A DNA stretch of 32,000 nt from Bacteroidales bacterium (GTDB lineage Bacteria > Bacteroidota > Bacteroidia > Bacteroidales > JBDKHP01). Of the stretch, positions 3,041 through 11,204 are shown piece after piece (within the stretch, counting starts at the first letter, position 1; the number at the start of each line of letters is the position of its first letter). The notes below the pieces were generated by a model. It was given only the letters and a program-made list of their open reading frames with translations, did no database searches and was not told where the DNA came from. The stretch is taken from the NCBI GenBank assembly GCA_965230435.1, contig CBDDLB010000006.1:2591101-2623100 (forward strand), in the 5' to 3' direction. Both the position numbers and the translations under genes were made by a program.

Positions 3041-3184
3041 GGTTAATAATCAGCAATATGTGATTTTGAGCTTTTTCTGTTCAGGATATGGCTGTTTCTC
3101 TGACTGCAACTTGAAAGGCTTGCTATTTTCGATAGTACTATACATGTAATGTTCGTTCGAAATGCCCCCTATTTCCCCCTAAAG

Positions 3185-3357
3185 TCCACATGATTTTAGG
3201 AATCAAACTTTGCAATATATAACTTGGGAATACACCCGAACCTGAGCAAAGGCCGGCAGTCCCACTGGGGTTAAGTTTACCCCTTCCTAAAGTTTGGTCT
3301 TAGGGCATGGTTAAAATTCTGATTGGTTGCAAAGACACCGTATAGTAGAGTAAATTT
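3185..3357 (+). ncRNA. candidate bridge-RNA-type guide RNA in the IS left end
   Basis: A ~173-nt non-coding left end lies upstream of the recombinase, against only 42 nt at the right end. It contains cctaaag (3286-3292), identical to the left target flank plus core (3178-3184). It also contains tatagtag (3341-3348), identical to the IS right terminus plus core (4774-4781). Local hairpins include ggggttaagtttacccc and cctaaagtttggtcttagg. Confidence 0.35.
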
Positions 3358-3363
3358 TTGTCG

Positions 3364-4738
3364 ATGCCCTTCTTCGGGTTCACAAAAATTGATCTGATGG
3401 AAGAAAAAAGGCGAGTAAAAAAGGAAAAGGTAGTCTACAATAGCGGCCTACCTGTGCTTAACGCACATGCGGCAGGGATTGACGTGGGCGACACCAAGTA
3501 CGACGTAGCGCTTTACGACCGTCGGGGGCGTCTTGTCACCCGTGAGTACGGAGCATTTACAGAAGATCTCTGTGCCCTTGCCGGGTGGCTTTCTCAAGAG
3601 AAGATCACCACGGTAGCAATAGAAAGTACAGGGGTTTATTGGCTGTGCCTATACGTGATGCTGGAAGAGGCAGGCATCAAGCCCTGGCTGGTCAATGCCC
3701 GTCATGCCAAGAACGTTACCGGGCGCAAAAAGGATGATACGGATGCGATATGGCTACAGAAGCTCCACAGCTGCGGCCTGCTGAACAAAAGTTTCCAGCC
3801 CGATACGGACACAAGAGTACTGCGTACTTATGTCCGGCAGCGTAAGCAACTGGTGACCACTTCCTCTGACAGTGTCCGCAGGATGCAGAAGTCACTGGAA
3901 CTGATGAATATCAAACTTCATACGGTCATCAGTGATATCCTGGGCAAAACAGGGCTGTCCATGGTCAAGGCCATACTAGAGGGCGAGCGAAGCCCCGATA
4001 AGCTGATCGCGTTCAAGGACTGTAGGATCAAGGCCAGTGATGAACAAGTGAAAAAATCATTGAAAGGCATATGGAAAGGAGAATACCTGTTTATGCTCAG
4101 GCTTGCATATGACCAGTATATGTTCTCATATGCCCAGGTCCAGCAATGCGATGAACATATAGCACAGGTGCTACAGGAGGCCGTTGCCAAAAACAACGGG
4201 GGAGAACTTCTGGAGATTAAAAAAAAAGCGGAAAAAGAATGACCTGACCTTTAACGCAAAGCCCCTGCTGCAGGCATTTGCCGGGGTAGATCTCTGCCGG
4301 ATAGAAGGCATAAGCCAGATCAGCGCACTTGAACTGCTCTCGGAAACAGGAACCGACATGGACAAATGGGAAAATGCAAAACATTTCAGTGCATGGCTAA
4401 ATGTGTCACCAAACACAAAAATCACAGGGGGCAAGGTGATAAGCAGTAAAATGCAGAAGAAAAAGAACCGTGCAGGCCAGGCACTCCGCATGGCATGCTG
4501 CAACCTCTCACGGAGCAAGGGGCCTATAGGGGATTATGCACGTAAAATGAAGAGCCGGCTCGGAAAAAAAGGCGGAGTTGTCGCAACCGCCCACAAGTTA
4601 GGCGTGATCATTTTCACAATGCTTAAAACAGGTAAGGAATATGACATTGAACTGAACACAAAAAATCAGGAAAAATGGAAACTACAACGGATAAAAAGTT
4701 TAGAAAAAAGATTAGAGGAGTTAAAAAAAGAAGTCTAA
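3364..4738 (+). pseudogene. IS110-family transposase (DEDD/RuvC-like N-domain plus Tnp C-domain) split by a frameshift in an A9 run
   Basis: The N-part (3358/3364-4242) has AAGIDVGD, VAIESTGVYW and KKDDTDAIWL. The C-part (frame +1, open from 4184 to 4738) has GVDLCRIEGISQISALELLSETG...FSAWLNVSPNTKITGGKV. The frames overlap at the run of nine A at 4219-4227, and removing one A fuses them into ...LLEIKKKRKKNDLTFNAKPLL.... The start may be ATG 3364 or ATG 3397. Confidence 0.8.
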
Positions 4739-4920
4739 AAACCCCTATATATCAACCAATTGCAATTTAGTTATATAGTAGGGGGACTTAGTTACCGAAT
4801 AGTCCTGAAAGGTGTCCGAATCAATACAATACAATTCAGGAACATTCACATTTGGGGCCTCTTTTAGGAGGGCGGTGGGAGGCCATTTCACAATAAAAGC
4901 ATTACATGTATAAGACTATC

Positions 4921-8700: not shown

Positions 8701-8802
8701 TGACTGGAAGTTATTCTGCTGATTTTGTTTGCAAAGGTCTTCATGAGACCACTTTGCTCAATGAATAATTCCTAAAATTCCCCAAACCTTAACAGTAGTT
8801 CT

Positions 8803-10890
8803 ATGAACGTAAAAAGAAAATATGCGGTCTTCTTTCTATTTCTACTTCACTTAACTGCAATTGCACAAAAGCAGCCCTCGGTACAGTTTTTTGAAGAAAA
8901 GCAGCAATATGCCCTGGTGAACAGTAAAGGTAGGGCCGTTTCGGGTTATTATACTGCGGTTTTCGATTTTGAACATTCCCATGCTATTGTACAGAAGGGC
9001 GTGCTTTTCGGAATTATAAACCAGAGTGGGAAAGAGATAGTTCCTGTGCGTTATTCTGCGAAGGAAATTAAAGACCAATTGGCAAAACGTTTAAGAAAGA
9101 AACTTGGAGATAAGGGCGAATTCTGGCTTTATCTAGCAGAAAAACACAGGAGGGACGAAGGACGGGTGAAGGAATATTGCCGAAAGGGGTATGAAAGCGA
9201 CAGTACAGATATAGAGCGTATTTTAAGTATTGCAGAACTGGTAAGAAGGGTGGATAATGATAAGGGGCTTTCTTATTATGAAAAGGCTTACATGTTGGAC
9301 AGTACCAATAAAGAGCTTGTTCTACGAATTGCAGATATTGTTGGGAATGAAGAGAAGGAGGGAAATGATGCATTTCTTTATTATAGGAAGGCTTACCGTC
9401 TCGATAGCACCAATTTGGAGCACATACTGCAACTTGCCGATAAGGTGAAGAAAAAGGAAGAGGGTGAATTTCTTTTCTATTGCAGAAAGGCTTATGAGCG
9501 GGATAGTACAAATGCAGGGACGGTATTGAGAATTGCCGAGAAACTTACAAAGGAAAAGATGTTAAAGTCTCTTTTTTATTACAAAAAATCGTATGAACGG
9601 GATAGTTCCAATTTTGAACACGTGTTGAAGATTGCAGATGCAGTGCAGAAGCTGTGGTTTCAGTATGAATATTCGGGAGGTGAAGTGATAGATAAAGAGG
9701 CGTATTTTTATTATCGCAGGGCTTATGAATTGGACAGTAGTACAGTGGAGCATTTAATAGAGATTATAAATGGAATAATGATAAATAGAGAAAGGGCTAA
9801 TGCCTATTACAGACAAGCTTATCGGGTAGATAGCAATAATGTTGATCATGTTTTGAAGATTGCAGACTATGACTTCAATGATTGGGATAATATTGATTGT
9901 GGGCTTGAGTGTCAAAAAGGCGAATATTTGGAAGAAATATATAAGAAAGATAGCACCGATGTACGGGTTCTTTTGAAGCTGATAGAGGCTAAATATTTTT
10001 GGGCACTCGAAAAGGTTTATAAACTCGATAGTCTTAATGCAAGTCAGATAGTACAGGCACTTGATGCGTCTAAACATTGTGAGGAGTTAAATGAGGAATC
10101 TGAAGATCCTGTGACGGGCGAAATTCGAAGTGAGAATGGCGACCTGTTCATAGAGTATGCCCGAAAAGCTTATGAGCTCGATAGTGGTAATGCTGAACAT
10201 GTGCGCAAAATAGCAGCGTGTTTTAATTCCAGAACAATAAATGTAACTGGGAGAAGTAGAGAATTGCTTGAGCGTTATGTAAAAAAGGCTTATGAGCTAG
10301 ACAGTACAAATCATCAGAACCTACTGGGAATAGCAGAGGTACTAAAGCCTGTCAATGAACAACGGGCTATTGATTGGGCTGAAAAGGCATACCGTATTGA
10401 TAGTACAGATGTTTCGGTACTTCTATGGTTAGGGGATGCTTTGTGGGATGAAAGCCAGGCATTATTGTATTATAAGAAAGCAAATCAGTTGTACCATGAT
10501 ACAGCGAAATTGAGAGATAAGAGTGAATTTATTAATGACATGCTTGATTTTGAAGATCCTGTTACTGGTGAACTTTTTCGGATTGATTATTTAGGGAATA
10601 ACCTAACCTATGCATGGTCTTATAAAAGTATACGGGCGGGGTGTTTTATGAATTCCAGAGAGCGGGTATTTGGTTCTTTTGAAGAATCAATAAGGTGCTT
10701 TACTGAAGATGCTTATTTCAGGAAAGATGATAAAGGGAAATGGGGTGTGATGGATGTAAAGGGGAAGGTGTTGGTGGATTATAAATATGATAAGGTGATA
10801 GAGGTGTTGAAAGAGGGAAAAGCCAAGGTGATGGAGGGGAAACAGGCTTTTTGGATCAATAAGAAAGGGGAGCGTCTGGCTGGGATTTGA
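8803..10890 (+). CDS. secreted repeat protein: WG-type beta repeats at both ends flanking 12-13 TPR/Sel1-like helical repeats
   Basis: 695 aa with signal peptide MNVKRKYAVFFLFLLHLTAIA-QK. WG-like segments are at the N-terminus (YALVNSKGRAVSGYY...FGIINQSGKEIVPVRY) and the C-terminus (KGKWGVMDVKGKVLVDYKYD...AFWINKKGERL). The core (F/Y)Y.KAY.LDS(T/S)N.EH(V/I)L(K/R)IA occurs 12 times between nt ~9169 and 10438. Confidence 0.85.
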   Translation: MNVKRKYAVFFLFLLHLTAIAQKQPSVQFFEEKQQYALVNSKGRAVSGYYTAVFDFEHSHAIVQKGVLFGIINQSGKEIVPVRYSAKEIKDQLAKRLRKKLGDKGEFWLYLAEKHRRDEGRVKEYCRKGYESDSTDIERILSIAELVRRVDNDKGLSYYEKAYMLDSTNKELVLRIADIVGNEEKEGNDAFLYYRKAYRLDSTNLEHILQLADKVKKKEEGEFLFYCRKAYERDSTNAGTVLRIAEKLTKEKMLKSLFYYKKSYERDSSNFEHVLKIADAVQKLWFQYEYSGGEVIDKEAYFYYRRAYELDSSTVEHLIEIINGIMINRERANAYYRQAYRVDSNNVDHVLKIADYDFNDWDNIDCGLECQKGEYLEEIYKKDSTDVRVLLKLIEAKYFWALEKVYKLDSLNASQIVQALDASKHCEELNEESEDPVTGEIRSENGDLFIEYARKAYELDSGNAEHVRKIAACFNSRTINVTGRSRELLERYVKKAYELDSTNHQNLLGIAEVLKPVNEQRAIDWAEKAYRIDSTDVSVLLWLGDALWDESQALLYYKKANQLYHDTAKLRDKSEFINDMLDFEDPVTGELFRIDYLGNNLTYAWSYKSIRAGCFMNSRERVFGSFEESIRCFTEDAYFRKDDKGKWGVMDVKGKVLVDYKYDKVIEVLKEGKAKVMEGKQAFWINKKGERLAGI

Positions 10891-10927
10891 ATGCTCTGTT
10901 TTTTGGTGACTGTTCTTTTGCCTCAGA

Positions 10928-11204
10928 TTGAAAAGGCTTGCTATTTTCAGTGTCAATAGCAAGCCTTTCAATAAATCTGCTAACGAAAACGGAGCGCAGA
11001 TTTAGAAAGCACAGCAGTTCTGGAAATAGCCGTGACTGTAGCGGAAAGCCCACAGCCACGCGTGCCAGTAACACACGGTGCGGAGGCTATGGAGCGGGAG
11101 CGGAATAGACCGCCGCGCTGATGTGGAACGGCACGGGGGGCGAGGACTTGCAGCGGAAGGCGCGGAGGTGTGTTCTTGGGAAAAGGTGGTGTTGTGCTCC
11201 TAAA
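10928..11204 (+). repeat. R2 dispersed repeat, copy B (intact, including the 5' hairpin H)
   Basis: Near-identical to copy A at an exact offset of 6020 bp. Confidence 0.9.
10932..10968 (+). terminator. hairpin H (14-bp stem, 9-nt loop) 42 nt after the stop of the WG-repeat gene
   Basis: The stem is aaaggcttgctatt (10932-10945) paired with aatagcaagccttt (10955-10968). There is no strong T-run, so terminator function is inferred only. The same hairpin at 3112-3130/4929-4948 is the MITE-A target. Confidence 0.4.

Follow-up and report, generated by a model that had tools for sequence, protein, structure and literature searches.

How did two almost identical copies of a dispersed non-coding repeat come to bracket a pair of accessory genes? 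The question is raised by a window of 32,000 nucleotides of a Bacteroidales bacterium (GenBank assembly GCA_965230435.1, contig CBDDLB010000006.1, positions 2,591,101 to 2,623,100 of the forward strand; coordinates without prefix are those of the window). In this window a gene for a TIR-domain protein and a gene for a protein with Sel1/TPR-like and WG repeats lie between two copies of a structured repeat that we call R2, a left copy (R2L) and a right copy (R2R). A preliminary description of this DNA had placed near-identical direct repeats exactly 6020 bp apart on the two sides of the gene pair, and the repeats were confirmed. A repeat finder returned 4921-5186 and 10941-11206 as direct repeats that are 97% identical and spaced 6020 apart. 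A base-by-base count of 4921-5183 against 10941-11203 gave 6 mismatches in 263 nt, at 4932, 5036, 5050, 5099, 5131, and 5160, with zero gaps. The description also had the homology reaching beyond an insertion that interrupts the left copy, which is the case: 3111-3130 matches 10929-10948 at 19 of 20 positions, with 17 nt exact and one A indel. As a measure of the chance level, the best of 200,000 random 60-nt window pairs showed an identity of 32/60.

Within its own family the flanking pair is an extreme outlier. The 8.0-Mb genome carries 135-145 R2 copies according to BLAST and nhmmer, and 123 of the 145 nhmmer matches are full length. Pairwise comparison of the full-length cores yielded 7,503 pairs with a median identity of 0.70 and a 99th percentile of 0.845; the flanking pair ranks first, with an identity of 0.975. 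The sole other pair above 0.9 sits within a 4.1-kb segmental duplication of 98% identity. The closest third copy to the flanking pair reaches 85-89%, over part of its length. The other R2 copies of the window are 75-80% complementary in the repeat finder and 0.69-0.745 identical over the core, which agrees with the earlier statement that they are far more diverged (69-80% alike). As the pair stands at 0.975 and no third copy exceeds about 89%, the two copies must descend from each other. Two separate insertions from an active master copy were also considered and were ruled out by the position of the pair as a family outlier with no close third copy. The preliminary description had allowed either a recent duplication or homogenization of the flanking copies. 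The pair is indeed recent and local, but general homogenization of neighboring R2 copies is unlikely, as the median identity among the 52 pairs separated by less than 20 kb is about 0.70.

The copied unit is larger than R2. After removal of the insertion from the left copy, a gapped alignment shows that homology begins at 3089/10907 with 25 nt that are 68% alike, continues with 278 nt at about 98% (3111-3130 plus 4928-5186 against 10929-11206), and collapses directly after GCTCCTAA, the 3' end of the family. The identity therein covers the most variable part of the family, its 3' tail, together with 76 nt upstream of R2. The duplicated unit is a 278-nt module composed of a palindrome with a 14-bp stem (hairpin-A), a spacer, and a complete R2. 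The left module (+ strand) starts with the left arm of hairpin-A at 3111..3130, which is split off by the insertion, and resumes at 4928..5193 with the right arm, the spacer, and the R2L core (covariance-model match 4974-5193). It is preceded by an edge at 3089..3110 (+) with weak homology to 10907-10928, about 68% over 25 aligned positions up to the base of hairpin-A. The right module (10907..11213, +) consists of the corresponding weak edge at 10907-10928, hairpin-A at 10929-10965, the spacer, and the R2R core at 10994-11213 (covariance model). The copy event, these boundaries, and the insertion context of the locus are observed, whereas the mechanism of copying is inferred. We believe, with a probability of about one half, that one module was copied from the other in a single, recent, local, and orientation-preserving event that took the whole module. 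Two routes could account for such an event: the module might have been duplicated as the TIR and Sel1/WG genes were put in place, or the left module might have been copied locally to the site behind the Sel1/WG gene.

A small repeat in its own right, hairpin-A occurs at about 11 loci and lies immediately before an R2 at 4 of them. It does not match the stem-plus-T-run consensus of a canonical terminator, and this assignment was discarded. Four hairpin-A copies at a spacing of about 408 nt are found at C6:2807074-2808334, beside the R2 copy L061, which suggests short units repeated in tandem, with the palindrome at the end of each. Another repeat adjoins the left module once the insertion is discounted: a tandem array in which a 41-bp unit with the palindromic core CCTGCAACTTGCAGG is repeated about 11 times (2639..3089, +; repeat finder), and part of the left edge at 3089..3110 matches a unit of this array. 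Five such arrays exist in the genome, and three of the others lie 200-400 nt upstream of an R2 copy on the same strand.

The insertion in the left module is itself composite. A miniature inverted-repeat transposable element, MITE-A (3131..4919, +; ends at 3131-3184 and 4780-4919), carries an insertion sequence (IS) of the IS110 family at 3185-4779. The 8-bp target duplication of the MITE, CTATTTTC at 3123-3130 and 4920-4927, lies in the hairpin-A loop of the left copy. The IS110 element is present in 10 copies at 99.8-100% identity, and the copy in the window is 100% identical to two others. The order given in the preliminary description, in which the copy event was followed by the MITE and then by the IS, is borne out: the left copy contains the target duplication of the MITE, and the IS is fully identical to other copies. 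The MITE would have inserted first, into the loop of hairpin-A in the left copy, and the IS110 element would later have inserted into the MITE. At least four of the 10 IS110 copies occupy the same MITE-A position (about 61), as expected of a sequence-targeted IS110 element. The transposase of the window copy reads as two overlapping frames split near a run of nine A (4220-4228). Three copies agree at every one of the 1595 nt of the element, so the split did not arise privately in the window copy; a programmed frameshift or a homopolymer error may account for it. An intact MITE-A is located in the region 29296-29883, 10 nt upstream of the R2 copy at 29064-29281 (- strand), and an inverted partial MITE-A arm is found at 29808-29883.

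Close, similar R2 copies also occur elsewhere in the genome. Among the 62 R2 pairs with at least 85% identity, 6 are less than 30 kb apart, compared with 0.6 expected (p = 2e-5). All six are in direct orientation and come from about 4 loci, at two of which the homology is confined to R2; adjacent R2 pairs as a whole are found in all four orientation classes. The excess of close, direct pairs of high identity indicates that local, orientation-preserving copying of R2 recurs, with the flanking pair as its youngest product. Separately, a cluster at C4:694000-722000 looks like a tandem duplication of R2-plus-gene units: its five R2 copies are 86-88% alike, its paralogous genes share 71-79% DNA identity, and it also contains a 41-bp array. 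At C6:1446986-1447188 and C6:1456447-1456648, two direct copies 9.5 kb apart are about 95% identical in the center and about 45% identical in their 3' tails. This mosaic suggests an older local pair that may have undergone partial gene conversion bounded by conserved blocks.

Gene conversion might also have acted on the flanking pair itself. Two old hairpin-A plus R2 modules would then have stood in front of the TIR gene and in front of the open reading frame ORF161, the next gene to the right of R2R, and one would have been overwritten over nearly its full length. We regard this as a possible but somewhat unlikely alternative. It would explain the 25-nt stretch at the left end of the identity block, which is diverged but not random, and is in line with the occurrence of hairpin-A plus R2 modules at two other loci, with an upstream leader of R2R that resembles that of L061 (TTTTGGTG..TGT), and with the conversion-like mosaic at C6:1456447/1446986. 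However, the conversion tract must end within the last ~10 nt of family homology on the 3' side and must cover the variable tail, where too little homology is available to anchor a RecA exchange. Partners of about 70-80% identity are poor substrates, neighboring R2 copies are not generally converted, and all six local pairs of high identity are direct, though conversion has no orientation preference. Because the flanking pair is near-identical over the whole module whereas the mosaic pair is diverged in its tails, module copying is favored over conversion.

Several points weigh against the copying of a whole module. The ~25 nt to the left of the identity block are still 68% alike, which seems too similar for chance and too diverged for a duplication that is 2% old; this edge would fit an older homology with a later-converted center. 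Hairpin-A also precedes two other R2 copies, and both sites could therefore have carried an old module of this subtype beforehand. To our knowledge, no mechanism exists for copying such a module as a unit, and a genome-wide check of neighboring genes revealed no transposase or recombinase associated with R2 copies. The direction of copying is indicated by weak hints. The right copy holds 4 of the 5 non-consensus differences, one of them at a G that is 98% conserved, and it does not have the 41-bp array that directly precedes the left copy, so that the right copy might be the secondary one.

The preliminary description preferred a different origin as the simplest reading, in which homologous (Campbell-type) recombination inserted a circle, with the cargo and one R2, at a resident R2 and by which the 6020-bp unit could leave in the same way. 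In its favor, the gene block between the direct repeats contains no mobility gene, it lies within acquired DNA, and 258 nt of 98% identity suffice for RecA-dependent exchange. Near-identity of the flanks would however require that the incoming and the resident R2 were already about 98% identical, although the family stands at about 70% and contains no third close copy (none above about 89%). The model presupposes the very duplication that it is meant to explain. As a single crossover yields chimeric R2 copies that are as different from each other as their parents, the circle cannot be the origin of the duplication. Signs of a travelling cassette are also missing, as no homolog of the Sel1/WG protein was found and none of the TIR protein closer than 46%, and the idea of such a cassette was rejected. 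We therefore consider integration of a circle unlikely as an origin, and the earlier preference for it was not sustained; the model could describe later excision and re-entry.

Later loss or amplification of the segment is a separate matter from its origin. Direct repeats recombine in a RecA-dependent manner, which leads to deletion, with a circle and a single repeat as products, and to tandem amplification. After the insertion of the MITE and the IS, 258 nt of direct homology remain at 98% identity, with a longest perfect run of 103 nt. From this established knowledge we infer that the remaining homology is plausibly ample for RecA-dependent loop-out or amplification of the 6.0-kb segment. 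If this is true, the TIR gene pair would be removable or amplifiable without a dedicated mobility gene, so that a costly conflict-type gene could vary between presence and absence at low expense.

The R2 element is a defined family that is long, covarying, and Flavo-1-like. It is an intergenic, rod-shaped structured repeat of about 205-218 nt. A 24-copy alignment showed invariant conserved blocks and a rod-like fold, with compensatory double changes in 26 of the 45 pairs predicted by RNAalifold, and the copies thus share a covarying common fold as structured elements do. G-U pairs occur only on the given strand, which fixes the strand of R2, and the single-sequence fold of R2R has a z-score of -4.8. 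The rod displays the same conserved loop motif, UGUAGCGGAARGC, twice. A basal closing helix was weak, showed little covariation, and was dropped. The open frames 4960-5319 (-, 119 aa) and 5012-5266 (+, 84 aa) overlap R2L and are by-products of the GC-rich repeat; similar spurious frames were seen across 18 R2 copies in a crude gene call.

A search of Rfam at the gathering level left R2 unmatched. In a permissive search R2L matched a single family, Flavo-1 (RF01705), at 25.1 bits (E = 0.004), which is below the gathering score of 42 bits that serves as the membership cut-off. R2L could be aligned along the entire Flavo-1 model (positions 1-76); every conserved block was matched, and 95 nt of R2L are inserted in the terminal stem. 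Hairpin arms with AGCGGAA-type loops after a 5' UAGCC and a host within the Bacteroidota, both diagnostic of Flavo-1, are found in R2. The top Flavo-1 scores of the genome, 28.7 and 27.9 bits, both belong to short R2 copies and are likewise below 42. The better of the two lies in the window at 860..970 (-), between a cheA-like gene and a ParE-type module, and is without the central domain (28.7 bits at 898-968; nhmmer 864-936).

The distribution of R2 speaks for turnover of its positions. The R2-derived covariance model found 39 copies in the incomplete genome G001 of the same genus and a few in two other families of the order. Only about 1/11 of the R2 positions are common to the two same-genus genomes, which implies that R2 copies turn over. 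The counts of R2 at synteny breakpoints were 0/2 versus 10/18, a small sample. With respect to the neighboring genes (upstream/downstream) of the 123 full-length copies, 52 contexts were same/same, 26 opposite/same, 25 opposite/opposite, and 20 same/opposite, so that 78 of the 123 have a downstream gene on the same strand. A role as a strict 5' leader was considered and rejected: all five copies of the window face a downstream gene, yet only 78/123 do so genome-wide. A tie to TIR genes was rejected too, as R2 lies directly upstream of only 1 of the 7 multi-TIR paralogs. No gene family was enriched downstream of R2 genome-wide.

One may ask whether R2 modules form a dedicated cassette system, in which they would be folded recombination sites, like integron attC, served in trans by an unlinked recombinase or nuclease. 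R2 copies are present at every junction of unrelated modules in a 23.8-kb block that contains the TIR segment, and elsewhere they often bracket operon-sized blocks; the doubled loop motif of the rod would suit a dimeric protein. However, R2 copies have no neighboring gene for a recombinase or Y1 transposase. None of the 4 full Y1_Tnp genes is flanked by R2, the nearest R2 copies being 1.5, 3.6, 5.2, and 100 kb away. Among the 14 Phage_integrase matches genome-wide none is beside R2 (the nearest at 2.9 kb, most beyond 10 kb), and there is none within the window. R2 copies appear in all orientations and contexts without co-oriented arrays, and site-specific exchange does not predict near-identical neighboring sites. 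Such a system appears highly improbable. Nor is R2 an attachment site for cassettes: its ~145 copies are dispersed over intergenic contexts of every kind, in either orientation. Three of the four full-length Y1-transposase (IS200/RAYT-like) genes, at C6:1476866-1477204, C4:1006787-1007128, and C3:327232-327576, are 1.5-5.2 kb from an R2 copy, and one of these lies between two inward-facing copies, an arrangement that is too loose for an association.

Two genes lie between the flanking modules. The first gene (5311..8700, +) codes for 1129 aa, in which Pfam identified three TIR domains and, at the C terminus, an FGE-sulfatase-like domain; PADLOC gave TIR-domain matches only. This TIR-FGE protein belongs with seven multi-TIR paralogs in the genome at 24-38% identity, and its best match outside the genome is 46% identical. 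The second gene (8803..10890, +) encodes the 695-aa Sel1/WG protein, whose repeats were recognized by a domain search. No paralog of it was found in the genome and no homolog in a search of 5.8 billion proteins. To the right of R2R follows ORF161 (11280..11765, +), with a product of 146-161 aa that matches no family. It closes the block, and the next gene is cobA (uroporphyrin-III methyltransferase; 11862..12728, -), which forms the right block boundary. ORF161 has only two weak homologs in 40 relatives, and distant homologs share no neighboring genes. Exact-protein look-ups of ORF161 and DUF6261 returned no records.

The preliminary description had assigned the TIR genes to acquired DNA, and the gene order of relatives supports this. 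The genes of the sir-cobA-sirC operon, of which sir encodes sulfite reductase, are contiguous in 14 Bacteroidota loci and in G001, 15 loci in all. In the present genome the only sirC (C6:2578571-2579155) is located 23.8 kb from cobA, collinear and on the same strand, and the span from sirC to cobA is C6:2578571-2603762. The operon is therefore split by a 23.8-kb block which, as judged from this gene order, is an insertion of lineage-specific accessory genes; the evidence is at the level of the island and does not resolve the 6.0-kb unit itself. The block comprises, in order, three genes for methyl-accepting chemotaxis proteins, cheW, cheA, the short R2, the ParE-type module, DUF6261, the 41-bp array, the left module with MITE and IS, the TIR-FGE gene, the Sel1/WG gene, the right module, and ORF161, with R2 copies at each junction between unrelated modules. 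No terminal repeats were found at the ends of the block. Base composition was considered as a sign of foreign origin and discarded: the TIR gene is in the 96th GC percentile, but cobA and DUF6261 are likewise. The sole same-genus genome, G001, is a 72%-complete metagenome-assembled genome; its DNA is 66-68% identical, and synteny is absent to the left of cobA. Scans of metagenomes and genomes with cobA returned nothing above 65% amino-acid identity. At 1152-1720 within the block, a small open reading frame of 85 aa is followed by one of 102 aa for a ParE-family toxin, and the two are likely a toxin-antitoxin pair.

R2 now stands as a defined family with turnover between species, copies at the junctions of accessory blocks, and repeated local direct copying. 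A broader reading, which we hold to be very unlikely, sees in R2 modules portable junction elements that serve as places of gain, loss, and copying of accessory blocks, with the TIR segment as the youngest example. The agent would be an unlinked protein recognizing the folded rod, or structure-induced breakage and repair. If true, this would be the first function for the orphan Flavo-1 class. A link between genome plasticity and Flavo-1, without known role since 2010, would be useful; the present evidence for it is circumstantial.

Among known systems, R2 can be compared with the Flavo-1 RNA motif, Rfam RF01705 (Weinberg et al. 2010, PMC2864571), whose function is unknown (PMC9723704; PMC2864571). 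In Flavobacterium psychrophilum, Flavo-1 matches were found in sense, in antisense, or outside transcribed regions (PMC9723704), and the mixed gene contexts of R2 resemble this pattern. Both elements are multi-copy, intergenic, and without known function in Bacteroidota, and R2 possesses the hairpin with two conserved GUAGCGGAA-type loops and the 5' UAGCC. They differ in that R2 scores 25-29 bits versus the gathering score of 42, the usual R2 has an extra covarying helix of ~95 nt where Flavo-1 has ~23 nt, and R2 carries conserved 5' (TTAGAAAGCA) and 3' (GCTCCTAA) extensions.

The REP, BIME, and REPIN elements with their RAYT transposases are similar to R2 as high-copy intergenic hairpin repeats with a conserved GTAG-containing motif and turnover of positions, and four Y1-transposase genes are present in the R2 genome. 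R2 is however five or more times longer, and its two GTAGCGGAA motifs are direct and not inverted. REPtrons, in which a Y1 gene is immediately flanked by the repeats, have no counterpart here, as the nearest R2 copies are 1.5-100 kb from such genes. Integron attC sites, including those of CALIN (clusters of attC sites lacking integrases) and of the Bacteroidales rAID-1, are also folded repeats that punctuate accessory or defence-type genes, and the excision of a one-site circle is conceivable in R2 as well. In contrast to integrons, in which the sites have an adjacent tyrosine recombinase (IntI or Xer-like) and co-oriented cassettes each end in a site, the nearest Phage_integrase match to R2 is at 2.9 kb and R2 is dispersed in both orientations; near-identity of adjacent attC sites would also be unexpected in an otherwise diverged family. 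The arrangement of the TIR segment, with direct repeats of more than 250 nt and ~98% identity bracketing 5.7 kb, is like that of segments flanked by IS elements or rrn operons that are deleted or amplified by RecA, except that the repeats are non-coding structured elements and that no rearranged form was observed. The finding is thus a variant of two known kinds, the dispersed structured repeat and the segment that can be deleted between direct repeats.

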